Source: a bacterium
Lineage (GTDB): Bacteria > Patescibacteriota > Minisyncoccia > UBA6257 > WO2-44-18
Length of the DNA: 64,000 nucleotides
Assembly: GCA_030646995.1 (NCBI GenBank)
Contig: JAUSKF010000006.1
Span: forward strand, 8,624-72,623
Direction of reading: 5' to 3'
Shown in pieces: positions 11,901-52,518 of the stretch. Numbering within the stretch: position 1 is the stretch's first letter; each line of letters begins with the position of its first letter. Made by a program: the position numbers and the translations under genes. The notes beneath the pieces are model-generated. The model searched no databases. It was not told the origin of the DNA and saw only the letters and a program-made list of their open reading frames with translations.

Positions 11901-12712
11901 GAATCGCTCGGGCTATCCCGACGGTGTCTAAAGAAGCCTTGGCTTCTAACACGTTCTCCAATTCCTCCAATCAGGCACTGTACCGATTTAAGGTTACAGC
12001 TCCGTCTGGTGGTAATGGTGTGAGCTTGTACAAGATGACCTTTGCGATTGCTACTAGCACCCTTAGCTCTCAAGAGACTGATGGTCAAAAAGTAGCTTCG
12101 ACTTATAGGGTGACCAACTTCGATCTGTATTGCTATGAGAATGCAGCTTTCTCGGTTGCTTCTTGCAATACGTTTGATAACTCTGGTCTCTTGAACCAGG
12201 GAGGTTTGGCCAATGCTTCGCACGACAAGTTGGGTCTTAACAACACCAATGAAGGTGCATATAGCTCCTCTTCCCCGAGCGTTAGCGTTCGCTTCAACCC
12301 GACTGACACTACACAGGGTTCTACTGCTGAAGCTATTAGATTGGCTGCTGGTGAAACCAAATACTTCGTCTTACAGGCGGACGTAACTGGTGGAACCAAC
12401 ACCCCGTCTATCACTGTTAGAATGGATGGCGATGCAACTTTCGCTTCGCTGAACGATTCTACTGACTTCGGCGCGGATGCAACTGGTGAAGATAAAGACT
12501 TCACCAATGGTCACGACAACTGGTCCACGGGTCGTTATGTCTTCGCAACCACGGCTTCTATTGTGGATGCGTGGGATAATGATGACTTCATCTGGTCCGG
12601 TAACTCTACCAACACCTCGCAGGGCATTTCGTCTTACGATTGGTTCAACGGATTCTTAGTTCCGGGCCTGTCTAACTCCGACAACGGCGCCACCGAAGTG
12701 TTAACTCTCTAA
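8960..12712 (+). CDS. Large secreted cell-surface protein (candidate S-layer / wall protein): signal peptide, coiled coil, peptidoglycan-binding domain, Pro/Ala linker, ~1050-aa Thr/Ser/Gly/Ala-rich beta-type region
   Basis: Signal peptide ending AHA/QT. PG_binding_1-like motif LTLGVRGDDVMCLQKYLN...GYFGALTASAVAKWQAANGV. APAPAPAPVPGTPAPVP linker. Almost Cys-free and acidic. Codon usage is clearly shifted to C/T-ending codons relative to its neighbours. A strong terminator lies downstream. Confidence 0.8.
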   Translation: MGNITKKFASIAISVATVASLSGFSMLVPVAHAQTSLQAQIDALLAQIAALQSQLASSSPVSTALCSFTRDLTLGVRGDDVMCLQKYLNSTGHKVSTSGPGSIGNETSYFGALTASAVAKWQAANGVAPAAGYFGRISRAKYASLAVVAPAPAPAPVPGTPAPVPSGSGLTVTLASDQPSNGLFGESFASRPFTKLTLRASADGDVTVKAMVVERTGQGSDAAFSGVIATDESGLRLGPSKTFGSDHRLRLTEKVVVKAGQTRTIVLAGDSDSDQNDYNGQLVSLSLVGVETEGATAVNASFPMTGATHTVNSTLAIGSMTIARGAFDPGSGLTKEIGTVGYTFSGLRLNAGTNEDVLVKAIQWNQSGSAGLADLTNVKVVLDGTTYDVTSTDGKDYVAKFGAGLKIEKGLSKEVYIKGDVAGGSARTVDFDLFRYSDIQVVGLTYGYALLPSGTEIAADNDDDGEIQDAEPRFDAYQVHIGAGSISAQNAPTVGSQNVAVNLSNQPLGGLLIDVKGEDVTVAAMNFDLSIIESTSQTDVDTNDITNITLVDENGKVVAGPVDAVAGGNNAIRFSDTVTFKPGRMVYTLKGKVGTDVGTNDTIAASTTPNSDWTTVRGVTSAVTITPTPSSAVTMSTMTVKAASLSITLSSDTQQGVASSTAQTVVSGTSGYTFTQYVLDASGSGEDLRINAMQLLLTFSSANAADDLTNCQLFDGATALNTGGNIVNPSNSDSTGAAKTFSFDSSLIVAKGTVKTLSMKCNLVSGAASGHYWNWGIADADASINSTGMTSGQTVDGSDAITADNGRIVIAATSGTLSLVLDASSPSLKWAQSGSTDNILAVFRLNATNESVRVDTLGLQLATSTNSSAVNGSSTPSDLTKVTLWVGALKVGEVVFTASDYATATLSGVTVPKDGQVLITAKGDIGNIGTGLSARPGHLVNVNYDASNSSDESNLGAIGVGLSSGTTISAGGSDTGSNGARIARAIPTVSKEALASNTFSNSSNQALYRFKVTAPSGGNGVSLYKMTFAIATSTLSSQETDGQKVASTYRVTNFDLYCYENAAFSVASCNTFDNSGLLNQGGLANASHDKLGLNNTNEGAYSSSSPSVSVRFNPTDTTQGSTAEAIRLAAGETKYFVLQADVTGGTNTPSITVRMDGDATFASLNDSTDFGADATGEDKDFTNGHDNWSTGRYVFATTASIVDAWDNDDFIWSGNSTNTSQGISSYDWFNGFLVPGLSNSDNGATEVLTL

Positions 12713-23340: not shown

Positions 23341-24498
23341 TTGCGCAGAAAAATTTGTGTGTTCTCCGGTAAGCGCGGTGGATTCGGGGCTTATCTGAAC
23401 TTGATGCGTTTAATCGAGAATGATCCTGATCTAGAATTGCAGATCATTTTGAGCGATATGCACGCTTCCGATAAATTCGGAGCGACCGCAAAAGAGGTGA
23501 AAGGATTTTTCCCTAACGTAGATATGGAAGTGGTTCCGATGAATTCCTCCAGCTCAGATTCTCCGGTGGCTCGCGCAACGAATCTTGGTGCCTGCCTAGA
23601 AGGCTTGGCTCCGGCGCTCGAGCGTCTTAAGCCGAATATTCTGATGGTGCACGGAGATCGCGGAGAACATTTGATGGCAGCATTTGCAGCTCTCAATCTT
23701 GGCATCCCCGTTACTCACACCCAAGGAGGCGAGACTTCCGGAAACATCGATGATGTTCAGCGTCATGCGATTACCAAGTTGGCACATTTGCATTTTCCGG
23801 AAACAGAGAAGGCAGCCCAGAAGATCCGCGCACTTGGAGAAGATGATTGGAGAATCCGAGTTGTCGGGTCTTTGTATATCGATCGGATCGTGGGAAAGCA
23901 GTACTCCGATGTCGGTGAGATGAAGAAGCGTTATGATGCGCCCGGTGAGTACGTTCTCGTGTTGTATCATCCCGACACCTTTCTTACCCCTGCCGAGAAT
24001 CGACAAGTGATGACGGACATCCTGGTTGCGGTTATGCACGTATGGAGGATTAGGACGATCGTCGTTCATCCTTGCTCTGATCCCGGTCATGAGGAAGTGA
24101 TTAGCACAATCAACGCCGCGAAAAAAGAAGACGTTTTTGACCACCTTCGGGTTTACAAGAACATCGATAACTTAGACTTCTTGGGGTTGATGGCCGGTGC
24201 CAGTGCCCTGATTGGAAATTCTTCCGCCGCCTTGGTCGAGGCTCCTTATTTTCATCTGCCGGCAGTCAATGTCGGAGATCGGCAGCGAGGGCGTGATCAC
24301 GAGCTGAACATCATCAACTCCGCAACGGAAATAAATTCCATCGTGAACGCCGTGGGTAAGGCGATCAACCCCTCTGGCGATTTGCGGGATATTTTGAAGA
24401 GTTGTGGGCAGAGATTGGGCGATGGGCATGCCTCCGAAAAGATTTTTGCGGCTCTGAAAGCAGTAGAGATCAACGAAAAACTTTTGCGTAAAAGTTAA
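23341..24498 (+). CDS. UDP-N-acetylglucosamine 2-epimerase, hydrolysing type (NeuC/LegG-like)
   Basis: RKICVFSGKRGGFG...DPDLELQIILSDMH (compare NeuC ILCITGTRADFG...HPDLELHLIVTGMH); HGDRGEHLMAAFAALNLGIPVTHTQGGE. TTG start with a good Shine-Dalgarno sequence, and an in-frame TAA 12 nt upstream. Confidence 0.7.
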   Translation: MRRKICVFSGKRGGFGAYLNLMRLIENDPDLELQIILSDMHASDKFGATAKEVKGFFPNVDMEVVPMNSSSSDSPVARATNLGACLEGLAPALERLKPNILMVHGDRGEHLMAAFAALNLGIPVTHTQGGETSGNIDDVQRHAITKLAHLHFPETEKAAQKIRALGEDDWRIRVVGSLYIDRIVGKQYSDVGEMKKRYDAPGEYVLVLYHPDTFLTPAENRQVMTDILVAVMHVWRIRTIVVHPCSDPGHEEVISTINAAKKEDVFDHLRVYKNIDNLDFLGLMAGASALIGNSSAALVEAPYFHLPAVNVGDRQRGRDHELNIINSATEINSIVNAVGKAINPSGDLRDILKSCGQRLGDGHASEKIFAALKAVEINEKLLRKS

Positions 24499-24523
24499 CC
24501 CGGCTAGAAAGGCCGGGTTTTTA
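24499..24523 (+). terminator. Rho-independent terminator CCCGGCtagaaagGCCGGGTTTTT
   Basis: Starts immediately after the stop codon. Confidence 0.6.
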
Positions 24524-24570: not shown

Positions 24571-25284
24571 ATGATAAATTATGAACATAGTGCCGTTGCG
24601 ATTATTCCTGCTCGTGGCGGATCCAAGGGGCTACCGGGCAAGAATACTAAGTTATTAGCCGGAAAGCCGCTGATCGCCTACAGCATTGAAGCAGCCAAAA
24701 AAAGCCGGTTCGTTAGTCGGGTAATCGTCACCACCGACGATCCAAAGATAGCGGAAGTTGCCAAGGCCGCGGGTGCCGAAGTCCCCTTTTTGCGTCCGGC
24801 GGAGATAGCCCAAGACAGCACCCCGATGTTGCCGGTGGTCCGCCATACCCTAGAATGGTTACAGCAAAATGAAAATTTTGCGCCGGAATTTGTGTTGATG
24901 ATCCAGCCGACTTCTCCATTCGTGAAAACTGAGCAGATAGATGCTCTATTCGAACTTTTGGTTTCCAAAGGAGCTGATTCAGGAATTACTACTATCGAAT
25001 TGCCGCGCCCATTCCATCCATATCACGTGCGCCATCTCACCGAGAGCGGGTATTTAGAATTTGATCAACCGGAATTACATTATCAGCACCCGACTAGGCA
25101 ATCCGATCCGAAACGCTACGCCTTCGCGAGCGTTTATTGGTTCAATCGTGACCTTTTTCTGAAAGAAAATAAAATTGAACCGGGTAAAAGAGTAGGTTTA
25201 CCGGTGGACCCGGCAACCGCGCACGATATCAACAATGCTTTTGATTGGGAAATAGCGGAAGTCCTGGTTAAGAAATACGGCTAG
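24571..25284 (+). CDS. Acylneuraminate/nonulosonate cytidylyltransferase family (NeuA/LegF/PseF/KdsB-like, CTP_transf_3)
   Basis: AIIPARGGSKGLPGKN...VIVTTDDPKIAEVAKAAGAEVPFLRP is a near-textbook NeuA N-terminus. The ATG at 24571 is chosen over the TTG at 24556. Confidence 0.75.
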   Translation: MINYEHSAVAIIPARGGSKGLPGKNTKLLAGKPLIAYSIEAAKKSRFVSRVIVTTDDPKIAEVAKAAGAEVPFLRPAEIAQDSTPMLPVVRHTLEWLQQNENFAPEFVLMIQPTSPFVKTEQIDALFELLVSKGADSGITTIELPRPFHPYHVRHLTESGYLEFDQPELHYQHPTRQSDPKRYAFASVYWFNRDLFLKENKIEPGKRVGLPVDPATAHDINNAFDWEIAEVLVKKYG

Positions 25285-25294
25285 AGCCATATTT

Positions 25295-26191
25295 ATGGAA
25301 CCCACAAAAGAGCAGTATATAATTGTTGCCTATCACTATGTAAGGGATCCGGATCCCAAATGGACCGGTATTCATTCTTGCTCAATTCGCGAATTTGATC
25401 GGCAGATCAAGCTTCTGTCGGAGCAATTCAAGATTGTTTCCGTTTCCGAAGTGGCCGAAGCGGCCCGACAGGCACGGGCTGGGAAGTTTTGCGCAATAAC
25501 TTTTGACGATGGACTTTTGGATAATTATCAGAATGCTCTGCCTGTATTGGAAAAATATGGAGCGAAGGCCACCTTTTTTATAATCACCTCGGTTTTTGAC
25601 GGTGGAGTGCCTCTTACTCACAAACTGCATGCTCTTTTCTCTCAGGCTTCTGCCGGCGAGTTGATCGATATTTTTAATCAGTGGGCAGCTGGTCGCTATT
25701 CGATTCCAAAAGACAAACGATTGGATCAGCGCCGCGTGCACGGTGATATCCTGACCAATAATTTTAAGGAAACGATGGTGATGTTGGATGAGGATACCCG
25801 TAAGAATTTTTTAGATTTTTGTTTTCAAAAGTTCCGTATCAATGAGCCTCTCCTTAATAAGCAGTTGTTTATGACTCGAGAGCAGGTAGTAGATATGAAG
25901 CGACGCGGTATGATCATTGGCAGTCATTCTCATAGCCATCATTCTTTTGAGTCCTTAAAGGCACCAGAGGCGGAAGATGATGTGTTTAGATCTAATGAGA
26001 GCTTAACGAAATTATTGGGGCGGACGCCTGATGTATTTTGCTACCCGCACGGACGCCATTCCAAGGTGACGCCCGTGATTCTGCAACAAGCCGGTTTTTC
26101 TTATGCGGTAGTCATCGAGCGCCGCGCGGTTTCTAAGAACGACGATTCATTTTTACTTCCTCGTTACGACGCTAATGATCTACGCGCTTAG
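25295..26191 (+). CDS. Polysaccharide deacetylase (NodB-homology / CE4 family), paralog A
   Basis: FCAITFDDGLLDNY, His-rich GSHSHSHH, CYPHGR; paralogous to the ORF at 42172..43113. Confidence 0.7.
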   Translation: MEPTKEQYIIVAYHYVRDPDPKWTGIHSCSIREFDRQIKLLSEQFKIVSVSEVAEAARQARAGKFCAITFDDGLLDNYQNALPVLEKYGAKATFFIITSVFDGGVPLTHKLHALFSQASAGELIDIFNQWAAGRYSIPKDKRLDQRRVHGDILTNNFKETMVMLDEDTRKNFLDFCFQKFRINEPLLNKQLFMTREQVVDMKRRGMIIGSHSHSHHSFESLKAPEAEDDVFRSNESLTKLLGRTPDVFCYPHGRHSKVTPVILQQAGFSYAVVIERRAVSKNDDSFLLPRYDANDLRA

Positions 26192-26255
26192 TTTTGACTA
26201 TCCCACGTATTTTATTGCATACTACCCCTAGTTGTTTAACAAGAGAGGAGTAGAT

Positions 26256-28343
26256 ATGGCGAGCGATGAGGTTGTTAAACCAAAGCTTGTTTATCTTAGC
26301 GATCTTACGCATACCTACCAGACAGTCGCTCTGAATACGGTTCCCTTTTCTGTTGCCGGATTGGTGTCTTACGCAAAGGCTAAACTCAAAGATTCGCAAG
26401 GTTTTCGGTTCCGCATTTTTAAGTATCCGGAAAAATTGATCACTGCTCTGCTGGAAGCCCCGCCTGATATCTTGTGTTTCAGCAATTACGTCTGGAACCT
26501 GGACCTGGGATATAGCATTGCCGAGCAGGTCAAGAAGGACCATCCGGAGGTCATCGTGATCTTCGGTGGCCCGAACTATCCCACCGATTTCAGCGAACAG
26601 GAGAAATTTCTTGCGGACCATCCGGCGATCGATTTTTATGCCTACAAAGAAGGTGAGATCGGTTTTACGGAACTGCTGGAAAGCCTAGCCACTAAGAATT
26701 TTGATGTTGCTATGGTTAAGGCTCTGAAGCCGCGCAGTTTTCATTACCTACTCGCCGGAGCTTTGGAAGTCGGCTTCTTGGCCGACCGCATCAAAGATTT
26801 GGAGGACATTCCTTCGCCATACCTGACTGGCGAGCTGGATGAGTTTTTCGACGCAACGCTAATCCCGATGATTCAGACTAATCGTGGCTGCCCGTTCACC
26901 TGCACTTTTTGCGTTGAGGGCTTGGGCTACTACAATAAGGTTAATAAGCGTTCGGTGGATACGGTGCGCAAAGAGTTGGAGTACATCGCCGGTCACAAGC
27001 ACCCCAACATCCACGATCTGCATATCGTCGATTCCAATTTCGGAATGTATAAGGAAGACGAGGCGATCGCCGATGCTATCGCGGGAGTACAGGAAAGTCA
27101 CGGCTGGCCGCAATATATCCATGTGGCTACCGGGAAAAACCAAAAGGAGCGCGTTTTGAGGGTTGCGAAGACCATCAACGGCGCTTTGCGGCTGGCCGGT
27201 TCGGTCCAGTCGCTATCGGAAAAAGTTCTCGAGAATATCAAGCGGGGGAATATCTCCGCTGATCAGCTGATGGATCTCGCTCACAAGGCAAAAGAGCTTG
27301 GTAGCAATACCTATTCCGAGATCATCGTGGCTCTGCCCGGTGAGACCAAGGAATCACACTTCGAAACGATCGGTACAATCGTCAACGCCAAATTCAATTG
27401 GGTTAGGATCTATACCCTGATGATGTTGTCGGGCGTGGAGATGTCCAATAATGAAACTCGCAAGAAGTATGAGATGCAGACCCGCTATCGGGTATTGCCT
27501 CGCTGCTTCGGATCATACAAGTTCGGCAACGAATTACTATTGAGCGCCGAGGTGGAAGAGGTTTGTGTGGCGACCAAAGATATGTCGTTTGAAGATTATC
27601 TTGATTGCCGCCTATTCCATCTGACGGTGGAGATTTTCTACAACGACAGCGTCTCTTCCGAGCTGGTGGAATTCCTGAACCTGTTCGGTATCTCGGTTTT
27701 CGACTGGCTGAAGCACATCCATGATCAACGTGATAGTTTCCCCGAACCGCTGAAGAAGATCTACCAGAATTTCTCGAGGTTGAGCCATGAAGAGCTTTGG
27801 GATTCCAAAGAACAGCTTTTGAAATTCACCAAAGACGAGCAGGTAATTCAGAAATACCTAACCGGAGAATACGGCAGCAACCTAATCTTTACCCACAAAG
27901 CGATGGCGATGACCGAAGCCCTGGAGGAGGTGTTGGCCGTTGCTTTCATCAGCGCCCGCTCCATTTTGGGTGGCACGCGACCGGAAACTCTAGGCGAATA
28001 TTCCGATTACCTTTCTAACTTGCAGGTTTACAGTGAGCTGAAGAAGAGAAGTCTCTTTGACGACAAGCTCCTGTCCGGGCCTGGAAATAGTCCGGAATTC
28101 AGCCGCTTGCTCTTCTTTGATTTTTTGGGTCTGGAAAATCAGGGATTCCGGGTTCTGCCCGACAACTTCCGCAAGCCGAACGGAGTGCTGGCAAGCTTCG
28201 TCCATACGGACGATCAGAGGAAGATCATCAAAGACAGTCTGGACCTATATGGCCGGAATATCATCGGCATTGCCCGAGTTCTGAGCAAGGTCCACGTTAC
28301 CAAGATTTACCGTATGTTGGTTCAGAATGATATCGTCGATTAA
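26256..28343 (+). CDS. Cobalamin-binding (class B) radical SAM enzyme, large (about 695 aa)
   Basis: N-terminal B12-binding-like Rossmann (ILCFSNYVWNLD...VIVIFGGPN), radical SAM cluster motif NRGCPFTCTFC (CxxxCxxC), and a long C-terminal extension. The start is moved to the ATG at 26256 (MASDEVV). Confidence 0.7.
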   Translation: MASDEVVKPKLVYLSDLTHTYQTVALNTVPFSVAGLVSYAKAKLKDSQGFRFRIFKYPEKLITALLEAPPDILCFSNYVWNLDLGYSIAEQVKKDHPEVIVIFGGPNYPTDFSEQEKFLADHPAIDFYAYKEGEIGFTELLESLATKNFDVAMVKALKPRSFHYLLAGALEVGFLADRIKDLEDIPSPYLTGELDEFFDATLIPMIQTNRGCPFTCTFCVEGLGYYNKVNKRSVDTVRKELEYIAGHKHPNIHDLHIVDSNFGMYKEDEAIADAIAGVQESHGWPQYIHVATGKNQKERVLRVAKTINGALRLAGSVQSLSEKVLENIKRGNISADQLMDLAHKAKELGSNTYSEIIVALPGETKESHFETIGTIVNAKFNWVRIYTLMMLSGVEMSNNETRKKYEMQTRYRVLPRCFGSYKFGNELLLSAEVEEVCVATKDMSFEDYLDCRLFHLTVEIFYNDSVSSELVEFLNLFGISVFDWLKHIHDQRDSFPEPLKKIYQNFSRLSHEELWDSKEQLLKFTKDEQVIQKYLTGEYGSNLIFTHKAMAMTEALEEVLAVAFISARSILGGTRPETLGEYSDYLSNLQVYSELKKRSLFDDKLLSGPGNSPEFSRLLFFDFLGLENQGFRVLPDNFRKPNGVLASFVHTDDQRKIIKDSLDLYGRNIIGIARVLSKVHVTKIYRMLVQNDIVD

Positions 28344-28421: not shown

Positions 28422-29576
28422 ATGAAGAAGATCTTGGTGTTGGGGATTGACGGATATCTCGGTTGGCCGACTGCGATGCGTTTTTCTCAGTTGGGTTATG
28501 AAGTGGCCGGCGTAGATAATATGGCGAAGCGTGGCTGGGAGGACGAAGTCGGCGCCAAGCCCTTGTGGCCGGTGCCGACCTTGCAAAAGCGAGTCCGGGT
28601 CTGGGAAAAAGTTTCCGGCAAAAAGATTCGGGTATTTGTTGGGGATATCACGGGCGGACGTTTCATCTACAAAGTTTTTGAAGATTTCCGTCCGGACGTA
28701 GTTATTCATTATGCCGAACAGCCTTCGGCGCCGTATTCCATGAAGAATCGTCAGCATGCCGTTTTCACTCAGGAGAACAACGTCTCAGGTACGCTGAACG
28801 TGATTCATGCAATGATGAGTTTTTGCCCCAAAGCGCACCTGGTTAAGCTGGGTACGATGGGTGAGTATGGAACTCCGAACATCGACATTGAAGAAGGCTG
28901 GCTGGACATTGAGCACAACGGTCGTAAGGATCGGATGATGTTTCCGAAGCGGCCGGGATCTTTCTATCACCTGAGTAAGGTGCACGACAGTCACAACATT
29001 GAATTTTGCTGTCGGGTCTGGGGTTTGAGGGCGACCGATCTTAACCAGGGAGTGGTTTATGGTATCGCAACCGACGAAACGGAACTCCACCCGGAATTGC
29101 TCACCAGTTTTCATTACGATAGCGATTTCGGGACTGCCCTGAATCGCTTCTGCGTTGAAGCAGTGGCGGGAGTTCCTTTGACCGTTTACGGAAATGGTGG
29201 CCAGAAGCGCGGATTTTTGAATATCCGTGATACGCTCCAGTGCGTCCAGATCGCTACGGAGAATCCAGCCGAATCCGGAGAGTTTCGGGTATTCAATCAG
29301 TTCACGGAAGTATTTTCTGTGACGGAGCTGGCTAAGTTGGTTCAGAGTGGCGCAAAGGAGCTGGGTTTGTCGGTGAAGATCGCCAACCTGCCCAACCCTC
29401 GCGTCGAAAGTGAGGCGCATCACTATAATCCGAAAAACGATTCGCTTCTGAAGCTCGGATTGCAGCCGAATATGCTTTCTGGAGAGTTGGTTGACTCCAT
29501 GCTCCGGAAGATCCAAGACGCCCGGGAATTGATTGATCTCGAGGTCATTCATCCTAAGACGAAGTGGAAACGTTAA
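28422..29576 (+). CDS. sqdB: UDP-sulfoquinovose synthase (SQD1/SqdB/Agl3 family)
   Basis: Near-identical blocks to plant/cyanobacterial SQD1 from memory: LVKLGTMGEYGTPNIDIEEG, FYHLSKVHDSHNI, ATDLNQGVVYG, GTALNRFCVEA, YGNGGQKRGFLNIRDTLQCVQIA, EFRVFNQFTEVFSVTELA. It is a monocistronic unit flanked by terminators. Confidence 0.85.
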   Translation: MKKILVLGIDGYLGWPTAMRFSQLGYEVAGVDNMAKRGWEDEVGAKPLWPVPTLQKRVRVWEKVSGKKIRVFVGDITGGRFIYKVFEDFRPDVVIHYAEQPSAPYSMKNRQHAVFTQENNVSGTLNVIHAMMSFCPKAHLVKLGTMGEYGTPNIDIEEGWLDIEHNGRKDRMMFPKRPGSFYHLSKVHDSHNIEFCCRVWGLRATDLNQGVVYGIATDETELHPELLTSFHYDSDFGTALNRFCVEAVAGVPLTVYGNGGQKRGFLNIRDTLQCVQIATENPAESGEFRVFNQFTEVFSVTELAKLVQSGAKELGLSVKIANLPNPRVESEAHHYNPKNDSLLKLGLQPNMLSGELVDSMLRKIQDARELIDLEVIHPKTKWKR

Positions 29577-29580
29577 AATC

Positions 29581-29610
29581 AGCTCCGCATTAATGCGGAG
29601 CTTTTTATTT
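29581..29610 (+). terminator. Rho-independent terminator (perfect 22-bp palindrome AGCTCCGCATTAATGCGGAGCT plus T-run)
   Basis: Seen directly, 5 nt after the sqdB-like stop. Confidence 0.7.
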
Positions 29611-29671
29611 CTTAAATTGCCAAACCGGCTTTAAATTGTTAATTTATGGTTATAACTTCCGTCTATCAGAT

Positions 29672-30634
29672 ATGTTGAATATTCTATTAGCAGAAAAAGT
29701 TTTCAGCCCTGATGCCAAGAAGATCCTAGCCAAAAAAGGCAGGGTTGTGGATTTTGTTTCTCGCCGGGAATTTATGAAAAATCTATCGAAGGCCGATGTT
29801 TTAGTGAATGCCTTAGAGATAAAGCTGGATAAGAATATCTTGCAAAAGGCGATCCGGTTGAAGCTGATAGGTAGCCGCACCACCCAGCTTCGCTATATTG
29901 ATTTGGACGAATGCAAAAAACGAGGAATTGAAGTAGTAAATATCAAGGCCGACTCACCGGTATTGCAGATTACCCCGTCCACCGCCGAAGAGGCGATGGC
30001 TCTGATTTTTTCCGTCCTCCGTCATATTCCTTGGGCGTTCGATTCAATTAAAAATGGCCAATGGGATCGGAAAAAATATGAAGGCCGCGAACTTTATGAA
30101 AAAACAGTCGGTCTAATCGGCTTTGGACGCTTAGGAAAGATGGTAGCAAAATTCTGCCAGGCTTTTGGCGCGATAGTGATTGCTTGCGACCCTAATATAA
30201 CCGCTAAGGCTATGCAAAAATCTAAAGTAAGAAAGGTTCCTATGAAAGAGTTGCTTAAAAAAGCTGATATTATTTCTCTGCATTCTGTTTATAATGACGC
30301 TACCTTCGGGATGTTAAAGGAGGAACATTTTCGATCCATGCGGCCGACGGCGATTTTTATCAATACTGCCAGAGGAGAGATAACTGATGAAAAGGCTTTG
30401 CTGAAAGCCCTAAGGCAAAATTGGATCGCCGGATCAGGGATTGATACTTTGGCCGGAGAAATGCCCGACGGCAGACATCTGATAGGTAATCCGCTAGTGG
30501 ATTATGCGCGGAAGAATAATAATTTGATTATCCTTCCACACCTGGGGGGATCCACTAAAGAGGCGACCGAGAGAACCCAGGTCTACATAAGCGAGCTTGT
30601 AGCCCGGGAGTTAAAAGGCGCTAAATATGAATAA
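29672..30634 (+). CDS. D-isomer-specific 2-hydroxyacid dehydrogenase (SerA-like 3-phosphoglycerate/glycerate dehydrogenase)
   Basis: NAD-binding GLIGFGRLGKMVA, catalytic R/E/H context (FINTARGEITDE, HLGGST). It sits upstream of glyA. Start at the ATG at 29672 (MLNILLAEKVF). Confidence 0.65.
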   Translation: MLNILLAEKVFSPDAKKILAKKGRVVDFVSRREFMKNLSKADVLVNALEIKLDKNILQKAIRLKLIGSRTTQLRYIDLDECKKRGIEVVNIKADSPVLQITPSTAEEAMALIFSVLRHIPWAFDSIKNGQWDRKKYEGRELYEKTVGLIGFGRLGKMVAKFCQAFGAIVIACDPNITAKAMQKSKVRKVPMKELLKKADIISLHSVYNDATFGMLKEEHFRSMRPTAIFINTARGEITDEKALLKALRQNWIAGSGIDTLAGEMPDGRHLIGNPLVDYARKNNNLIILPHLGGSTKEATERTQVYISELVARELKGAKYE

Positions 30635-31865
30635 AGATCATCAATTAGGAAAATTAGTTAAAGCCGAGATCAAGAGACAGGAGGAAACCTTGGATCTTAT
30701 CCCGTCCGAAAATTACGCCTCTCCGGAAATTCTAGAATTGCTGGGTTCGCCCCTCACTAATAAATATTCCGAGGGTTATCCGGGCAAGCGCTATTATCCG
30801 GGCAATGTTTTTTATGATGAGATAGAGCGGCTGGCTCAAAAGAGGGCGTTGGAGGTCTTTACTCTGGACCAGAATGAGTGGGCGGTGAACGTACAGCCAT
30901 ATTCCGGATCCCCCGCCAATCTGGCGATCTATTCGGCCCTGATGGAGTTCGGCGATACCCTGCTTGGTTTAAAGTTAGACGCGGGTGGTCATCTCACTCA
31001 TGGGCATAAGGTTAATTTTTCCGGCAAGGCCTACAAGGTTGTTCATTATGGAGTTTCCGAAAAAACGGGATTAATAGACTACGATCAATTGGAAAAGTTG
31101 GCGCGGGAGAATAAGCCCAAGGTAATCGTTTCCGGTTTAACTGCATATCCTCGGGAGATTGATTTTAAAAGGATTGGCGCAGTGGCCAAATCGGTTGGCG
31201 CTTATCACCTGGCGGACATTTCTCATATTGCCGGATTAGTTTTGGCCGGCTTGCACCAATCCCCATTTGATTATGCCGACGTGGTGATGACCACCACTCA
31301 TAAGGCCCTCCGTGGGCCGAGAGGAGCAGTAATCTTTTCGAGAAAATTCCCAATTACTAATTCCCAATTACTAATTTCTGAAGCAATCGATAAGGCGGTT
31401 TTTCCGGGGATGCAGGGCGGGCCCCACAACAACTCCACGGCCGCCCGCGCTTTGATGTTTTGGGAGGCTGGCCAGCCATCGTTCAAAAAATATCAGGAGC
31501 AGACTCTGAAGAACTCTAAAAAACTGGCGGAATCGTTGATGAAATTGGGTTTTAAATTGCTGACCAATGGCACCGACAATCATTTGATGGTAGTAGATTT
31601 GAAGAATTTTAATTTGGATGGAAAGATAGCCGAGCAGATGTTGGAAGCTAATAATATTAATGCTAATCGCAATTCTATTCCCGGAGATCTTTCGCCTCTG
31701 AAGCCGAGCGGTATTCGTATAGGCACTCCAGCGGTTACGACTCGTGGAATGAAGGAGCGAGAAATGGAATTAATCGCTGATTTTATTTATCGGGTATTAG
31801 TTAAAAAGGAAGACGTGGGCGCAGAGGCCAAGAAGCTTTGCAAAAAGTTCCCGCTCCCTTATTAA
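30627..31865 (+). CDS. glyA: Serine hydroxymethyltransferase
   Basis: DLIPSENY, VQPYSGSPAN, TTTHKALRGPRGAVIF, AVFPGMQGGPHNN. It contains a perfect 14-bp tandem duplication at 31347..31374. Confidence 0.9.
   Translation: MNKDHQLGKLVKAEIKRQEETLDLIPSENYASPEILELLGSPLTNKYSEGYPGKRYYPGNVFYDEIERLAQKRALEVFTLDQNEWAVNVQPYSGSPANLAIYSALMEFGDTLLGLKLDAGGHLTHGHKVNFSGKAYKVVHYGVSEKTGLIDYDQLEKLARENKPKVIVSGLTAYPREIDFKRIGAVAKSVGAYHLADISHIAGLVLAGLHQSPFDYADVVMTTTHKALRGPRGAVIFSRKFPITNSQLLISEAIDKAVFPGMQGGPHNNSTAARALMFWEAGQPSFKKYQEQTLKNSKKLAESLMKLGFKLLTNGTDNHLMVVDLKNFNLDGKIAEQMLEANNINANRNSIPGDLSPLKPSGIRIGTPAVTTRGMKEREMELIADFIYRVLVKKEDVGAEAKKLCKKFPLPY
31347..31374 (+). repeat. Perfect 14-bp tandem direct repeat (TTCCCAATTACTAA x2) inside glyA coding sequence
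   Basis: Seen directly. It encodes PITN|SQLL inside the variable loop between the PLP-Lys region and the FPGMQGGP motif. Confidence 0.6.
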
Positions 31866-31866
31866 A

Positions 31867-32646
31867 ATGATTATTAACGGCAAAGAAATAGCCGCTAAAG
31901 TTTTGGCGGAGTTGAAATCTCGACCACGGCCCTTGAAAAGCTTAGTGGCTGTTTTGGTTGGAGATGATGCCGCTTCTTTGAGTTTTTTAAAACAGAAAGA
32001 AAAGATTGCGAAGGAGTTAGAGGTGCCATTTACGTTGGAGAGAATTGCTGAAGAGACCAACGAAGAAGATTTAAAAGAAAGGATTGAAGAGATTTGCTCC
32101 GACAAGGGGGTGGGTGGAGTGATTGTGCAATTGCCGTTGCCGGAAAAATTTAATCGCAGCGAGGTTTTGTCGGCGATTGCGCCGGAAAAAGACGTTGATG
32201 GCTTAGTCGGCGCCGCCTTGCCGCCTGCGGCTTTAACCGTTAAAGAAATTTTGAATAATTTGAGTTTTGATTTGGAGGGAAAGACAGTCGGAGTAGTCGG
32301 CAAAGGATTTTTAGTCGGTGCACCGATTGCGAAGTGGCTGGCCGGAAAATGCGGGGAGGTGATAGTTTTCGATAGCAAAAGTGATTTATCCGGACTAAAA
32401 AAGGCCGACTTAGTGATAACTGGCACCGGAAGGGCCGGCTTGATCAAGCCGGAAATGTTAAAAGTTGGCGCGGGAGTAATTGATTTTGGTTTTGGAATGG
32501 TGGACGGGAAGATTCGTGGCGACCTCGACACTTTTAACTTTGAACTTTTAACTTTAAACTTGTCTTTTTATACCCCGACTCCCGGAGGCACGGGCCCAAT
32601 CTTAGTTGCAGAATTGTTTCGGAACTTTTACGATCTGAATAAGTAA
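31867..32646 (+). CDS. folD: Bifunctional methylene-THF dehydrogenase / methenyl-THF cyclohydrolase (FolD), divergent
   Basis: IINGKEIA, VLVGDDAAS, catalytic-region Lys retained (ASLSFLKQKEK), VGGVIVQLPLPEKF, KDVDG, VVGKGFLVGAPIA, PGGTGPILVAELFRNFY. Confidence 0.7.
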   Translation: MIINGKEIAAKVLAELKSRPRPLKSLVAVLVGDDAASLSFLKQKEKIAKELEVPFTLERIAEETNEEDLKERIEEICSDKGVGGVIVQLPLPEKFNRSEVLSAIAPEKDVDGLVGAALPPAALTVKEILNNLSFDLEGKTVGVVGKGFLVGAPIAKWLAGKCGEVIVFDSKSDLSGLKKADLVITGTGRAGLIKPEMLKVGAGVIDFGFGMVDGKIRGDLDTFNFELLTLNLSFYTPTPGGTGPILVAELFRNFYDLNK

Positions 32647-34733: not shown

Positions 34734-36023
34734 ATGTCTGACGGAGTCAAGAAAACGGTTGGCGAACTCCGCAAGGAAGCGGTGGCCACCCACGATGAAC
34801 GCTCTGAAAAGATCTTCAATTGGGCCAAGGAGCATGGGGGCGTGCACCACCGGGTAAGTCGCTATAAGACCAGGGCAACTCCGGAAAACGTGCAGAAACT
34901 GATCGATTTGATCTCCGGCGCGCTGGAGGCCAGCGTCCGACCGGATGCTTCTATTCTGATTTCGGTGATGGCCTACCTTCAGAAGTATGATCCTACCAAT
35001 ACTGATGAAGCGGGGCGGGACACCGGTGGTTTCTCCCTTGCTCTAAGCGAGATTGACGTCGCATTGACGCATCTCGATGACAGCCAAGAGAAAGCGCTCC
35101 GTTACCTGGCATATCGCTACAAATCCAAAATGTATCCGGATGAGAGCCGAGTCGTGGATTTCCCGACTATTCTTTATGTTGAATCGGCGTTGGCCTGCAA
35201 TCTGATGTGCACGATGTGCTATCAGTCGGATAAGAAACTTGTCGAAGTGATAAGATCTACAGAAAAGAAGGTAATGGATTGGGATCTTTATCAGAAAGTG
35301 ATCGATGAGGGCGCGGAAAACGGCCTTTGCGCGGTTGTATTTGCCGGCAGGGGCGAGCCTACGCTGAATAAAAACTTCACCCAGATGCTCCGGTACGCCG
35401 ACGATAAGGGAGTCCTGGACATCAAGATCAATACCAACGCCACTAGACTCACGGAGCAGATGGTTCGCGATTGGCTTTCCATCGGCGCTCCTCTGACTGT
35501 GGTTTTCTCGGTAGACGCCGCCGACAAAGAAGGCTTCGAGGCAATCCGCCTTGGCGCTAACTTCGACGAGGTGATTGCCAACATCAAGATGTTTGACCGG
35601 ATCCGCTCGGAAGAATTTCCGGACTCTCCGGTCCGCACCCGCATCTCGATGACTCTTTTTCAGGATAGTCAGGATCCGGAAGCGGCGAGAAATTTGTGGG
35701 GTAGTCTGGTTGATGAGTTTACCGCCAAGAACGCTCGTGGCGAGCAGTCCGGCAGTATTTATCAGACCGGCATTGGCGGCCAGCCCAAGAATCTGAATCC
35801 CGGTAAGAAGTGTCGAGTACTCTTCGACCGCCTGTATATCTGGTGTGATGGCAAGGTGAATCCTTGCGAGGATGATTACTTGAGCACGCTTCAACTCGGC
35901 AATGCCTACACGCACACACTGAAGTCTCTTTGGGGTTCCAAGGAGATGAACACGATGCGGATCCGGCATATGACCGGCTGTAAGAACAAGATCAGCCCGT
36001 GCAACGGCTGCAACGGATACTAA
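34734..36023 (+). CDS. Radical SAM enzyme with C-terminal SPASM/twitch Cys-rich domain and a ~140-aa N-terminal extension
   Basis: CNLMCTMC (CxxxCxxC) at residues ~155-162, glycine-rich GRGEPTL, C-terminal Cys cluster CRVLFDRLYIWCDGKVNPCED...CKNKISPCNGCNGY. AAAGGAG Shine-Dalgarno sequence. Confidence 0.7.
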   Translation: MSDGVKKTVGELRKEAVATHDERSEKIFNWAKEHGGVHHRVSRYKTRATPENVQKLIDLISGALEASVRPDASILISVMAYLQKYDPTNTDEAGRDTGGFSLALSEIDVALTHLDDSQEKALRYLAYRYKSKMYPDESRVVDFPTILYVESALACNLMCTMCYQSDKKLVEVIRSTEKKVMDWDLYQKVIDEGAENGLCAVVFAGRGEPTLNKNFTQMLRYADDKGVLDIKINTNATRLTEQMVRDWLSIGAPLTVVFSVDAADKEGFEAIRLGANFDEVIANIKMFDRIRSEEFPDSPVRTRISMTLFQDSQDPEAARNLWGSLVDEFTAKNARGEQSGSIYQTGIGGQPKNLNPGKKCRVLFDRLYIWCDGKVNPCEDDYLSTLQLGNAYTHTLKSLWGSKEMNTMRIRHMTGCKNKISPCNGCNGY

Positions 36024-36033
36024 AGGAGAAAAC

Positions 36034-36999
36034 ATGAAAAACAAAGTTTACCTAGCTGGTCTGGGAAACTTCGGGAAGAAGATCGGGGAGTATCTCGAAA
36101 AGATGGGCAAGAACGTTTGCGTTCTGCCGAAAGACTTGGCGGCGCAGACCGAGGCCCTCAAAGATCCCGAAGTGGAAGCCCTGTTTGTAGTCACTCCCAA
36201 CGATCGGCATTATGAATTGCTGGATAAAGCCTTGAAGGGAGGGCGGCACCACATTTTTGTGGAAAAGCCGATCACGTCTTCTTGGGGGGATGCTTTGCAG
36301 CTTCGCGATCTAGCGAAAGCAAACAGGAACATTTTGATGGTTGGTCACAACCAGCGGCGTGAAGCAGTTTTCCGGAAAGCAAAAGAAATTTTGGATTCCG
36401 GAAGGATCGGCAAGGTTGTCAGTGCGTACTTCAACTACTCTCACGGCGCGGCGTTCAATATCTCGCCGGATAATTGGCGAGCGCAGATCAAGCGGCATCG
36501 TGAAGGCCCGTTGATCACTCTTGGTAGTCATAGCATTGATACCCTGCATTATCTTCTGGGCCCGGTGAAATTGGTCACGGCGTTCATTCAGAATTTGACC
36601 GGCAAGATCGAGGCACCGGATGCGAATGCGGTGACGATGTTGATGGAAAACGGAGCAACTGTTTTTTTGCAGGCGGATTACAATATCCCCAGCGAGAAGA
36701 TCTGCTTGATCCACGGGACGGAAGGAGTAATCGGGATTAACCGCGACAAGATTCACCTGCGGATCGGCCGGGACGTTGATCGGAAACCTTCCGAGTATGA
36801 AGAGATCCCGGTCGCTCACGTGGATACGATTGAAGAAGAGCTGGAAGAGTTCTTTGCGGCGATTGAAGGCAGGGCCACCGTGGAGACTGGTTTTTCCGAA
36901 GCCTTCAACGTGATGGCCGTGATAGATAGTTGTTTTCATAGCGATAGACATCGCCCACTGCTTTCTGTGGCTGATGAATCGCCCGGCTACTTTTCTTAG
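36034..36999 (+). CDS. Gfo/Idh/MocA-family NAD(P)-dependent oxidoreductase (sugar/cyclitol dehydrogenase-like)
   Basis: N-terminal Rossmann KVYLAGLGNFGKK, HIFVEKP motif, C-terminal alpha/beta domain. Forms a two-gene unit with the radical SAM/SPASM gene, and a terminator follows. Confidence 0.7.
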   Translation: MKNKVYLAGLGNFGKKIGEYLEKMGKNVCVLPKDLAAQTEALKDPEVEALFVVTPNDRHYELLDKALKGGRHHIFVEKPITSSWGDALQLRDLAKANRNILMVGHNQRREAVFRKAKEILDSGRIGKVVSAYFNYSHGAAFNISPDNWRAQIKRHREGPLITLGSHSIDTLHYLLGPVKLVTAFIQNLTGKIEAPDANAVTMLMENGATVFLQADYNIPSEKICLIHGTEGVIGINRDKIHLRIGRDVDRKPSEYEEIPVAHVDTIEEELEEFFAAIEGRATVETGFSEAFNVMAVIDSCFHSDRHRPLLSVADESPGYFS

Positions 37000-42171: not shown

Positions 42172-43113
42172 ATGTCTGATTTATCGAAAGATAAATATAT
42201 CATTGTTAACTACCACTACGTGGAAGATCCGCGCCCTAAGTCGGCGGGAATTTCTCCCTGTTCGATTGCTGAGTTTGATCGTCAGATCAGTTATTTGTCA
42301 AAGAATTTTAAAATAGTCAACTTGGGAGAGATTTATCAGGCCGCGGTTTCCGGTAAGGAGGGGAAGTTTTGTGCTATTACTTTCGATGATGGCCTGAAAG
42401 ACAATTATGTTAATGCTTTTCCAATCCTCCAGAAATATCAGGCAACGGCTACTTTCTTTATCATTACCTCTGTATTCGAGCATCGTCTACCCGCAGCTCA
42501 CAAGATCCATATTTTACTTTCTAGATTTACCGCTGATCAGATTATCGATCTTTTCCATACTTTCATAGGTGAGTTTTATCCAGACCTAAAAAACCAATAT
42601 ATCATTCCCAAGGACCGTCGTTTAACAGAGCGTAGGATGCATGAAGGAGTAGCAATGGCTAATTTCAAAGAAACAATGATCGCCTTGCCGGAAGATGTGC
42701 GGAGTCAGTTTTTGCGTTATGGATTTAAGATTAATAAATTGAACGAGGAAAAAATCAGTAGCCATTTATTTTTAAATCGAGAAGAAATCAAGGCTTTGCT
42801 GGATGGGGGCATGCAAATCGGTTCGCACTCCCATGGTCATTATTCTATGTCAGGAGACGATGAATCTTTTTTGCGAAAAGACGTAAAACTTTCCAAAGAA
42901 ATTTTATCAGGGATCATCGGCGCTTATCCCAAATGGTTTTCCTATCCGCATGGGCGTTCTAGCGCGGTGGCCGAACGGGTTCTGCGAGAGGAGGGTTTTG
43001 ATTTAGCGGTGACTATTCAGCGGAAAAAAATAGAGAGCACCGATAGTCCGTTGACGATCCCTCGGTATGATACGATAGATATAAAAGAGTATTTGGATGA
43101 GCAAAAGATTTAG
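42172..43113 (+). CDS. Polysaccharide deacetylase (NodB-homology / CE4), paralog B
   Basis: FCAITFDDGLKDNY, GSHSHGHY, SYPHGR; paralogous to the ORF at 25295..26191. Confidence 0.7.
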   Translation: MSDLSKDKYIIVNYHYVEDPRPKSAGISPCSIAEFDRQISYLSKNFKIVNLGEIYQAAVSGKEGKFCAITFDDGLKDNYVNAFPILQKYQATATFFIITSVFEHRLPAAHKIHILLSRFTADQIIDLFHTFIGEFYPDLKNQYIIPKDRRLTERRMHEGVAMANFKETMIALPEDVRSQFLRYGFKINKLNEEKISSHLFLNREEIKALLDGGMQIGSHSHGHYSMSGDDESFLRKDVKLSKEILSGIIGAYPKWFSYPHGRSSAVAERVLREEGFDLAVTIQRKKIESTDSPLTIPRYDTIDIKEYLDEQKI

Positions 43114-48630: not shown

Positions 48631-49573
48631 CCATCTGACACAAAAGAAAATTTCCGTAGTGATTGCCTGCTACAACGAGGAGGCAAACATCCGGACCTTA
48701 TACGACCGGCTGATTAACGTTTTTAAAGACATCACCCCTCACTACGAATTTATCTACGTTGATAACAACAGCACTGATAGTTCGCCGCAGATCTATAAAG
48801 AGCTGGCGGCGCAGGACAAATCCGTTTCCGCCATATTAATGGCCAGGAATTTCGGAACTTCCGATTCTTCTTTTTCGGCCGGTACCGAATATGCCTCCGG
48901 CGACGCCGTGATCTGGATAGACGGTGACATCCAAGATCCTCCGGAGTTGATAAAAGAATTCGTGCAGAAATGGTTGGAAGGCAATGATGTTGTTTATGGC
49001 ATCCGGGCGAAGCGCGATGCCAGCTTGGTAATGAAGCTAGGTTCTAAGTTGTTCTATCGTGTCTTTAACAAAATGTCTTATATCCATATGCCGGTGGACG
49101 CGGGAGATTTCGGCTTGATGGACCGAAAGGTGGTGGACGTCTTCAATCAGCTGCCGGAGCGCGACCGGTTCGTGCGTGGATTACGGGCTTGGGTAGGCTT
49201 TAAGCAGACCGGAATACCGTACAAGCGAGCCGACCGCCAAGCAGGAGTGAGTACGCAAAAGATTTCGCGTTATTTTTACACCTTCCGCAAAGGAATCTTC
49301 TCCTTTTCTTATTACCCACTTTCCCTGATCACTTATCTGGCTGTTTTCGCTTTCTTTATTTTGGTGGCGGCAGGAATTATTTACCCGATTTGGTCCATTA
49401 TTGATCCCGCGCCTTCCGGATTCCTGACAATCTTAATGATTGTTTTGTTTATCGGCAGTGTGCAAATGATTTCTCTGGCAATCTTGGGCGAATATCTTGG
49501 AAGAATTTTTGAAGAAGTGAAGGGTCGGCCGAAGTATGTAATTCGGGAGATTATTAACGATAAAAGAAAATAA
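48623..49573 (+). CDS. GT2 polyprenyl-phosphate glycosyltransferase (ArnC/GtrB/DPM1-like) with C-terminal TM helices
   Basis: ISVVIACYNEEANI, YVDNNSTDSS, WIDGDIQDPPE (DxD region), two C-terminal TM helices. Confidence 0.75.
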   Translation: MNNHLTQKKISVVIACYNEEANIRTLYDRLINVFKDITPHYEFIYVDNNSTDSSPQIYKELAAQDKSVSAILMARNFGTSDSSFSAGTEYASGDAVIWIDGDIQDPPELIKEFVQKWLEGNDVVYGIRAKRDASLVMKLGSKLFYRVFNKMSYIHMPVDAGDFGLMDRKVVDVFNQLPERDRFVRGLRAWVGFKQTGIPYKRADRQAGVSTQKISRYFYTFRKGIFSFSYYPLSLITYLAVFAFFILVAAGIIYPIWSIIDPAPSGFLTILMIVLFIGSVQMISLAILGEYLGRIFEEVKGRPKYVIREIINDKRK

Positions 49574-52517: not shown

Positions 52518-52518
52518 A

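Follow-up and report, generated by a model that had tools for sequence, protein, structure and literature searches.

A radical SAM gene lies at positions 26256–28343 (stop codon included) on the + strand of the window, by which we mean the whole 64,000-nucleotide stretch analysed; its immediate neighbours, the flanking hairpins and the internal features described below are on the same strand. Translation of the window gave an uninterrupted open reading frame running from a TTG at 26232 or an ATG at 26256 to 28343. The ATG, which is preceded at 5 nt by an AGGAG resembling a Shine-Dalgarno sequence on direct reading (26246–26250), yields a protein of 695 aa, and the identical database protein P0001 has the same start. 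The gene is real and intact. Its product had been described in the original prediction as very large; however, 695 aa is ordinary for the TokK clade (TokK 681 aa, CysS 645 aa) and the notion of an unusually large enzyme was dropped.

Upstream, a NeuC-type hydrolysing UDP-GlcNAc 2-epimerase, a partner in nonulosonic-acid pathways, is encoded at 23341–24498 (NCBIfam NeuC_NnaA 307.6 bits, above 235.9; Pfam Epimerase_2). This gene ends at a terminator-like hairpin of 9 pairs, 6 of them G-C, with a T-rich tail (24497–24519), and a similar hairpin, again with 9 pairs, 6 G-C and a T-rich tail, lies at 29581–29602; both were located by a consensus scan only. Bracketed by the two is a putative unit of four genes, the first of which (24571–25284) encodes a PseF/NeuA-like CMP-sugar-acid cytidylyltransferase (Pfam CTP_transf_3; NCBIfam PseF 162 bits against 206). 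A CE4 polysaccharide deacetylase gene follows (25295–26191; Pfam Polysacc_deac_1), ending 64 nt 5' of the radical SAM gene, and such deacetylase genes were found within 300 bp of a radical SAM homologue in six loci of different clades. The fourth gene (28422–29576) starts 78 nt 3' of the radical SAM gene, is directly followed by the second hairpin and encodes an orthologue of UDP-sulfoquinovose synthase (SQD1). Alignment with Arabidopsis SQD1 (1qrr) was gapless, with a score of 505 bits, approximately 62% identity and the YHLSK motif present; the NCBIfam model UDPsulfquin_syn scored 475 bits against a cut-off of 575. The radical SAM gene appears to be co-transcribed with those for the CMP-transferase, the CE4 deacetylase and a true SQD1. 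The predicted setting among NeuC-like, NeuA-like, deacetylase and SQD1 genes was borne out by these Pfam and NCBIfam matches and the SQD1 alignment, and the YerE-like TPP enzyme also predicted is present at 49573–51351.

Several putative nonulosonic-acid transferases of the TagB/BFO_1060-like type, a family whose role is described in PMC5420450, are among the further neighbours. NeuB was absent from the 64-kb window when all ORFs of at least 60 aa were searched by tblastn and with an HMM derived from 35 sequences of NeuB, and a complete nonulosonic-acid pathway is consequently not demonstrated there. Pfam matches in the window, which comes from a probably Patescibacterial genome, included none for cobalamin uptake or salvage, and an Rfam scan returned nothing at gathering thresholds, including no cobalamin riboswitch; no tRNAs were found. 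The window thus offers nothing for or against the earlier remark on B12 dependence in a streamlined genome. A 610-aa protein without Pfam match encoded after a second deacetylase gene (43097–44929) was considered as a degenerate second copy of the radical SAM enzyme and rejected, with an hhalign probability of 0.3% and the features of a polytopic membrane protein.

In the AlphaFold model of the radical SAM protein (pLDDT 93.1, pTM 0.91), a five-stranded Rossmann domain with a beta-hairpin occupies residues 10–172; the radical SAM barrel comes next, and some 290 aa at the C-terminus are folded into a further domain. The first of these corresponds to a predicted cobalamin-binding domain at residues 9–175 or thereabouts (26280–26780), which aligned by profile with the cobalamin domains of TokK and CysS and whose modelled topology is the ‘class 1’ described in PMC13331322. 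Within it the model and alignment place the residue of the loop following strand 3 for a site under the corrin: this is Trp80 (codon 26493–26495), where YVWN pairs with YVWN in the HMM alignment, making it the equivalent of TokK Trp76 and CysS Trp75, which in the published structures sit 3.8 A beneath the cobalt. Trp80 was retained in all 69 homologues of one set and in 82 of 83 in a second. The Pfam B12-binding match (PF02310, residues 58–140, E 7e-7) reached 29.5 bits against a cut-off of 32.1, a shortfall of 2.6 bits that counts against a cobalamin-dependent function, although a precomputed PF02310 match is recorded for 116 of the 120 best homologues. Because this score alone falls just below threshold, the B12 assignment is based on homology and fold. 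We consider it very unlikely that the Rossmann domain has ceased to bind cobalamin and that the protein is an AprD4-like sugar dehydratase or oxidoreductase, or something similar.

The radical SAM core barrel (residues about 207–400; 26874–27455), delimited by Pfam PF04055 (residues 207–371, 61.6 bits against a cut-off of 29.5) and by alignment with TokK and CysS, contains the motif CPFTCTFC (26889–26912). This is a CxxxCxxC motif for the radical SAM [4Fe-4S] cluster and its cysteines, C212, C216 and C219, were invariant in both homologue sets. Co-occurrence of PF04055 and PF02310, the proposed check, was therefore clear for the former and marginal for the latter in the protein itself; the predicted N-terminal Rossmann region of B12-binding type and the cysteine cluster were otherwise confirmed by the modelled fold and the invariant cysteines. 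A GKN motif, Q318, R330/N332 and E355 are common to the window protein, TokK and CysS. The C-terminal part (residues about 405–695; 27468–28340) does exist as predicted, but rather than an odd extension of some 250 aa it is a conserved domain that corresponds to the third domain, which binds substrate, in TokK and CysS. Its family-specific invariant residues are R412, Y448, R452 and R686, and the three arginines would fit an anionic substrate. In combination these motif, domain and fold features are far beyond chance.

Compared with the PDB, a profile of 69 homologues matched nothing but TokK (E 2e-66) and CysS (E 2e-60), and the structural correspondence with both extends over the full length, including the large C-terminal substrate-binding domain. 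The best NCBIfam model was the KedN5 family NF033712 (180.3 bits, E 5e-53, residues 61–399, cut-off 700), while models of the PhpK/Sden_1168, HpnR, HpnJ, BchE and TsrM types scored 32–61 bits against cut-offs of 480–650, those for PhpK, HpnR and BchE giving 41–44 bits. Pfam matches at E <= 1 were limited to Radical_SAM, B12-binding and a spurious DUF2124. By sequence and predicted structure, the window protein belongs to class B, the cobalamin-type radical SAM enzymes, and has the three-domain architecture of TokK, ThnK and CysS. The class originally predicted is accordingly upheld by homology, fold and the KedN5-family match; the likeness then drawn to GenK, GenD1 and Fom3 gives way to TokK, CysS and KedN5-type iterative sp3 C-methylases as nearest relatives. 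A BchE/HemN-like or plain radical SAM identity was set aside in view of family scores and fold, and no YgiQ model was among the best 25 of 30 NCBIfam matches, so that YgiQ/UPF0313 was rejected also. JGI gives homologues the name YgiQ/UPF0313, which looks like a generic COG label.

Full-length homologues were found in more than 576 bacterial and archaeal species, among them culturable ones such as Thalassospira lucentensis DSM 14000. Gene neighbourhoods were compared in 82 species-level loci, 53 of which have flanks of 5 kb or more in either direction. NeuB, NeuC or a CMP-transferase is encoded within 10 kb in 32 of the 53 well-flanked loci, and two or more of the three in 25, often inside the same operon as the homologue. 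Unbiased clustering of neighbours over the 82 loci placed the same genes at the top (CMP-transferase in 33 loci, NeuB in 32, NeuC in 25). Homologues of 43–63% identity from Saccharibacteria, Parcubacteria, Pelagibius and other genomes retain neighbours of the window type, and in Acidobacteria the radical SAM gene lies between NeuB and NeuC within a legionaminic-type operon. Across at least eight phylum-level groups the homologue is embedded in sugar operons. This cross-phylum neighbourhood lends real support to the earlier proposal that a sugar undergoes radical modification, probably C-methylation.

Since a large family found inside sialic-acid-like sugar operons has the build of TokK and CysS, it probably methylates a surface sugar of that kind. 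On balance we favour, with moderate confidence, the reading that the protein works as a B12-dependent C-methylase on a sugar of the nonulosonic-acid pathway, by chemistry of the TokK/CysS type. By analogy with those enzymes, one SAM would methylate cob(I)alamin and a second would be cleaved at the [4Fe-4S] cluster held by C212, C216 and C219, giving a 5'-deoxyadenosyl radical. This radical would abstract hydrogen from the substrate at an unactivated sp3 carbon, and the substrate radical would then receive a methyl group from methylcobalamin, presumably held base-off above Trp80; the transfer may repeat. The substrate would most likely be an anionic sugar, an intermediate in the CMP-activated, sialic-acid-like pathway encoded nearby; candidates are the nonulosonic acid, the CMP ester of this acid or a hexosamine or nucleotide-sugar precursor, and the predicted product is a C-methylated or C-alkylated surface sugar. 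We know of no natural nonulosonic acid bearing a C-methyl group, so that this product would be without precedent.

Two features of gene content count against C-methylation of a nonulosonic-acid pathway sugar. The window lacks NeuB even by HMM, and no nonulosonic-acid gene lies within 10 kb in 21 of the 53 well-flanked loci, including a Streptomyces/Nocardia clade. The latter figure would also suit an incidental glycan link, with the enzyme modifying a lipid, peptide or small metabolite, as would the fact that TokK, CysS and KedN5 work on pantetheinyl- or carrier-linked natural-product intermediates. Such a link is nevertheless highly improbable given the recurrence in sugar operons noted above; even the actinobacterial clade devoid of nonulosonic-acid genes has an adjoining GT28 glycosyltransferase, and beside the radical SAM gene the window has no genes for NRPS, PKS or carrier proteins.

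The missing NeuB is likewise in keeping with a second reading, in which an enzyme of the same class and chemistry acts with the adjacent SQD1 on UDP-sulfoquinovose, or on some other nucleotide-hexose belonging to the locus, methylating for example C6, which bears the sulfonate, or one of the ring carbons. Within the clade of the window, the radical SAM gene adjoins both a true SQD1 orthologue, inside the same terminator-bracketed unit, and a CE4 deacetylase. SQD1-like genes scoring above 390 bits were present near the homologue in 19 loci, in about nine of these within 300 bp, and the linked loci span CPR bacteria and the delta-, alpha-, beta- and gammaproteobacteria. However, SQD1 is missing from the vicinity of most members linked to nonulosonic-acid genes (Acidobacteria, Thaumarchaeota, Chloroflexota, many Proteobacteria), and SQD1-linked loci nearly always also have NeuB, NeuC and CMP-transferase. 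The catalytic and C-terminal invariant residues are moreover equal across the family, suggesting a substrate feature common to all members, and we regard UDP-sulfoquinovose as a rather unlikely candidate.

The active site raises a different doubt. TokK Trp215 and CysS Trp206, relevant to methylation, are replaced at the equivalent position by E221, with Glu or Asp in 78 of 83 homologues (52 of 52 nonulosonic-acid-linked and actinobacterial members, 26 of 31 others). This conserved acidic residue counts against a methylase and could signal another radical transformation of a sugar, for instance the forming of a C-S or C-C bond, a rearrangement or a ring contraction, like those carried out by ThnL, OxsB, HpnJ or BchE; non-methylating members of the superfamily are listed in PMC12931638, and the sulfur chemistry of the nearby SQD1 could hint at C-S work. 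Both solved full-length relatives are, however, methylases, the best-matching NCBIfam family is annotated as a C-methyltransferase and the tryptophan beneath the cobalt, a typical feature of TokK and CysS as radical methyl-transfer enzymes, is invariant. SQD1, for its part, forms its C-S bond by itself. A transformation other than methylation is accordingly rather improbable.

The C-methylase reading would bear on microbial surfaces broadly. A known kind of enzyme is found here in an undescribed pathway context; a literature search retrieved no paper linking this B12 radical SAM family or SQD1 with nonulosonic-acid genes and no biochemical characterisation of any family member. Nonulosonic acids are major surface determinants of microbes, with roles in immune evasion, recognition by phages and predators, and glycosylation of flagellin and S-layers. 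To our knowledge their described diversity consists of N-acyl and O-substituents, with no modification of the carbon skeleton described, and a cobalamin radical SAM enzyme in such operons of hundreds of species would imply that the skeleton is modified as well. It is conceivable, though we hold this tentatively, that the family is the missing enzyme for undescribed bacterial and archaeal sialic-acid-like sugars with B12-dependent C-methyl or C-alkyl groups, that in the window's clade these sugars might use or combine a sulfonated precursor made by SQD1, and that the surface glycans of carriers depend on external cobalamin. CPR bacteria and SAR11 are mostly unable to make B12. If this is true, CPR bacteria, some SAR11, Thaumarchaeota, Acidobacteria and many Proteobacteria would need externally supplied cobalamin for their surface glycans, a cell-surface trait would be tied to vitamin B12 availability, and the TokK/CysS structural class would have its first carbohydrate substrate. 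That the gene is conserved as a neighbour of a true SQD1 is, in addition, a hint of sulfonated sugars in bacteria that are non-photosynthetic and poor in lipids. With culturable carriers such as the Thalassospira strain the question is directly testable.

Compared with canonical Neu, Leg and Pse operons, the same partners recur beside the window family, namely NeuC_NnaA, PseF-like CMP-transferase, NeuB, DegT, PglD-like proteins and TagB-like transferases, although the window locus itself differs in having no NeuB. The NeuC-NeuB-NeuA, Leg and Pse pathways as described in the literature searched contain neither a cobalamin radical SAM enzyme nor an SQD1 homologue. Among characterized enzymes, TokK and ThnK are sequential methylases at carbapenem C6 (PDB 7KDX, 7KDY). 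In addition to the exchange of Trp215 for Glu221, the carboxylate anchor Arg280 of TokK falls at position 289, which is His in the window protein and variable in homologues, and was for that reason dropped as a clue to the substrate; unlike TokK, the C-terminal domain has its own invariant arginines and tyrosine. TokK belongs to a beta-lactam cluster whereas the window family is found in sugar operons, where a pantetheinylated substrate is not expected. CysS, the cystobactamid methylase that iteratively builds O-methyl into alkyl groups (PDB 9N1B-D), shares approximately 20% identity with the window protein. Its His371 is replaced by Tyr386, as in TokK, no conservation in the window family was traced for Trp206, Trp271 and Phe485 of its substrate cavity, and its genomic context differs. 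The match to the KedN5 family of methylcobalamin-dependent radical SAM C-methyltransferases spans the cobalamin and radical SAM domains; with a score far below 700 bits and the C-terminal 300 residues unmatched, the window protein is a relative of this family rather than a member. GenK, GenD1, Fom3 and PhpK, which are presumably shorter and lack the TokK-type C-terminal domain, have in common with it the superfamily and the two-SAM methylcobalamin radical mechanism. Their kinship appears much more distant, judged by the PhpK-family model (44 bits against a cut-off of 600). Fom3 and PhpK act on phosphonates, and GenK and GenD1 are class B methylases of aminoglycoside sugars which show that C-methylation of a sugar carbon is feasible for enzymes of this class (PMC12931638).

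The radical SAM gene occupies an uninterrupted forward-strand ORF (26232/26256–28343) in which AGGAG precedes the ATG at 26256 with a spacer of 5 nt. Translation from this ATG gives a 695-residue protein, identical to a database sequence (P0001), that contains the cluster motif RGC212PFTC216TFC219. The large ORF with a CPFTCTFC motif in the original prediction was therefore borne out, and Pfam placed a Radical_SAM domain (PF04055) at residues 207–371 (61.6 bits, cut-off 29.5). The expected pairing with a B12-binding domain (PF02310) was obtained in part: residues 58–140 scored 29.5 bits (E 7e-7), just under the cut-off of 32.1, while precomputed PF02310 matches were present in 116 of the 120 nearest homologues. 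A Pfam scan of the whole protein gave no match in the final 300 residues. The top-ranking NCBIfam model was the KedN5 methylcobalamin-dependent radical SAM C-methyltransferase family (180 bits, E 5e-53, residues 61–399), a score far short of the 700-bit cut-off and so outside family membership; other class B families (Sden_1168, HpnJ, PhpK, HpnR, BchE, TsrM-type and others) scored 32–61 bits. A profile of A1, an alignment of 69 full-length homologues, matched only TokK (E 2e-66, residues 26–471) and CysS (E 2e-60) among solved proteins. Assignment to class B, the cobalamin-type radical SAM enzymes, was correct, with TokK and CysS as nearest solved proteins; GenK, GenD1 and Fom3, cited for comparison in the original prediction, are not close, and neither are PhpK and BchE. 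The label YgiQ, attached to homologues by JGI, looks like a generic name.

An AlphaFold model generated from A1 was confident throughout (pLDDT 93.1, pTM 0.91). Foldseek aligned it over approximately 670 columns with both TokK (TM 0.73–0.78) and CysS (TM 0.70–0.78), and for this reason the C-terminal part is modelled as a third domain of the type that binds substrate in those enzymes (TokK and CysS papers). The protein had been regarded as unusually large with a C-terminal extension, but 695 residues is an ordinary size for the TokK/CysS clade and the extension corresponds to their third domain. Alignments with OxsB, TsrM and MgmA were far weaker. Cobalamin chemistry without methylation, as in ThnL or OxsB, is considered unlikely. 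The modelled N-terminal domain has five strands and a hairpin, the topology of "class 1" cobalamin-dependent radical SAM enzymes (PMC13331322). In the profile alignment W80, within a YVWN motif, matches TokK Trp76 and CysS Trp75, which lie 3.8 Å under the cobalt and hold the cofactor base-off, His-off (TokK and CysS papers). W80 is invariant in A1 and was found in 82 of 83 species-level homologues; a GGP motif (residues 104–106), K294-N295, Q318, R330/N332 and E355 are also common to the three proteins. Enzyme class, architecture and conserved cofactor residues are shown by homology and fold. A cobalamin-free, AprD4-like enzyme appears very improbable. No B12 transporter, salvage gene or cobalamin riboswitch was found in the window.

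The gene is surrounded by a glycan locus exceeding 45 kb. The part upstream of the gene encodes methyltransferases, GT4 glycosyltransferases, a flippase-like protein and, at 21224, a TagB/BFO_1060-like transferase; these are followed by forward-strand genes for a NeuC_NnaA epimerase at 23341 (307 bits, higher than the cut-off), a PseF-like CMP-transferase at 24571 and a CE4 deacetylase at 25295. Directly downstream is an SQD1 orthologue (28422–29576, forward strand) aligning without gaps to Arabidopsis SQD1 (approximately 62% identity, 505 bits), YHLSK catalytic motif included, and all four types of neighbour originally named were recovered. A consensus scan located strong terminator-like hairpins before the CMP-transferase gene (24497–24519) and after SQD1 (29581–29602), a bracketing of the CMP-transferase, deacetylase, radical SAM and SQD1 genes that is only suggestive. 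Beyond SQD1 are a PGDH-like 2-hydroxyacid dehydrogenase, SHMT, FolD, GT4, an epimerase, a radical SAM/SPASM protein, a GFO oxidoreductase and further TagB-like transferases. NeuB was not detected in the 64-kb window by tblastn or with an HMM from 35 NeuB sequences, nor in the examined stretch of a Saccharibacteria locus (L003). Five TagB/BFO_1060-like putative nonulosonic-acid transferases are encoded in the window (21224, 37045, 39399, 40809 and 53823).

Several other genes of the window were also observed. The PGDH-like dehydrogenase, serine hydroxymethyltransferase and FolD genes lie in series (29636–32646, forward strand), with a second, weaker FolD-like gene at 150–935 (forward strand) and a formyltransferase in the Pelagibius locus L006; they may provide a dedicated one-carbon or formyl supply or may be housekeeping genes caught in the operon. 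The radical SAM/SPASM (twitch-like) protein, a second radical enzyme in the same glycan pathway, is paired with the GFO/IDH/MocA oxidoreductase (34734–36999, forward strand), and the same pair adjoins the homologue in the Saccharibacteria MAG (L003, 1320–3607). Consistent with the YerE-like branched-sugar module proposed originally, an acetolactate-synthase-type TPP enzyme precedes two aminotransferases (49573–53823, forward strand). The radical SAM gene is approximately 21 kb away, and the top PDB match of the TPP enzyme was 5AHK (376 bits), the Pseudomonas protegens YerE homologue. A second CE4 deacetylase, 47% identical to that beside the radical SAM gene, overlaps the start of a 610-residue polytopic membrane protein without Pfam match (42172–44929 for the two genes, forward strand); the membrane protein is possibly a polymerase, a ligase or a GT-C-like enzyme. 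The 1250-residue product of a gene that precedes the glycan locus (8960–12712, forward strand) has an N-terminal peptidoglycan-binding domain as its sole Pfam match and is possibly a large surface protein.

Database relatives of the radical SAM protein number more than 3,000, full-length to approximately 42% identity, and with each species represented by a single genome, homologues were found in at least 576 species. The nearest are from MAGs of Saccharibacteria (63%) and Parcubacteria (61%), so the host is probably a Patescibacterium (CPR); other carriers include Pelagibacteraceae, Nitrosopumilus, Acidobacteria, Nitrospira, Chloroflexota, many Proteobacteria and Streptomyces. Gene calls and Pfam searches around six homologues identified NeuC-like, CTP_transf_3, SQD1-like SDR (~385–408 residues), NeuB, TagB-like and MsbA-like ABC exporter genes, with a deacetylase and 2-hydroxyacid dehydrogenase at some. 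When all ORFs within 10 kb were clustered without prior labels across 82 non-redundant loci, the commonest neighbours were CMP-transferase (33 loci), NeuB (32), a generic sugar SDR (31) and NeuC (25), followed by DegT aminotransferase (14), a second B12 radical SAM of ~510 residues (12), NTP-transferase (12), SQD1 (12, or 19 by tblastn), TagB-like (11), ABC exporter (11), PglD-like (9) and deacetylase (9, six within 300 bp of the gene). Among the 53 loci with at least 5 kb available on both sides, NeuB, NeuC or CMP-transferase was present in 32, and at least two of the three in 25. In Acidobacteria the order is PglD-NeuB-[homologue]-NeuC-NTP-transferase-CMP-transferase; with NeuB and NeuC on its two sides, the homologue sits within a legionaminic-type operon. 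Linkage to nonulosonic-acid genes is therefore both statistical and positional, and in the window's clade extends to SQD1 and the deacetylase. A substrate unrelated to glycan is highly improbable. The Streptomyces/Nocardia/Saccharothrix clade (L045, L046, L048, L055, L056, L058, L062 and L083) had no nonulosonic-acid genes within 10 kb; members possibly perform the same chemistry on a different sugar acceptor. In six loci of this actinobacterial clade a GT28 (MurG-like) glycosyltransferase gene lies ~60–90 bp downstream.

In some related glycan loci (L029, L041, L014, L026 and L057) cobalamin-type radical SAM genes occur in twos or threes. In L029 two members of the family are joined by a 508-residue cobalamin-type enzyme, and in L041, from a SAR11 single-cell genome, a 547-residue B12 radical SAM, a SPASM protein and a family member lie side by side. 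Such lineages, SAR11 among them, are usually described as making little use of B12. The window's true SQD1 orthologue lies in a glycan locus, not a sulfolipid context, of a probable CPR bacterium. In CPR and Proteobacteria, SQD1-like genes recur beside the homologue in company with NeuB and NeuC, which points to a sulfonated sugar in the glycans of SQD1-carrying loci. A radical SAM substrate coupled to SQD1, for example UDP-sulfoquinovose, is a minor but credible alternative.

From its context, the preferred substrate would be a nonulosonic acid, its CMP ester or a precursor. Because the gene occurs in Neu-, Leg- and SQD1-type operons alike, features that their sugars share, for example the C3 methylene or N-acetyl methyl, are attractive if speculative targets. 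The family's C-terminal domain has its own invariant R412, Y448, R452 and R686, lacking in TokK and CysS, and the extra arginines might hint at an anionic substrate. A full-text literature search found no paper tying nonulosonic-acid biosynthesis to SQD1 or to a radical SAM enzyme of the cobalamin type, and no such function is among those given in a review of B12 radical SAM enzymes (2026, PMC12931638); the enzyme is therefore of a known kind, whereas its pathway setting is undescribed, and its family-wide tie to sialic-acid-like sugar operons and SQD1 is new here. By analogy with TokK and CysS, one SAM would methylate cob(I)alamin, a second would yield a 5'-deoxyadenosyl radical that takes hydrogen from an sp3 carbon, and the substrate radical would capture the methyl of methylcobalamin, possibly iteratively. 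The counterpart of TokK Arg280, the carboxylate anchor, is a variable position in the family. The protein is predicted to work like TokK and CysS, yet without their active-site Trp after the cluster motif (TokK W215, the mutation of which slows TokK (TokK paper), and CysS W206), which is replaced in most of the family by Glu or Asp (E221 in the window's protein).
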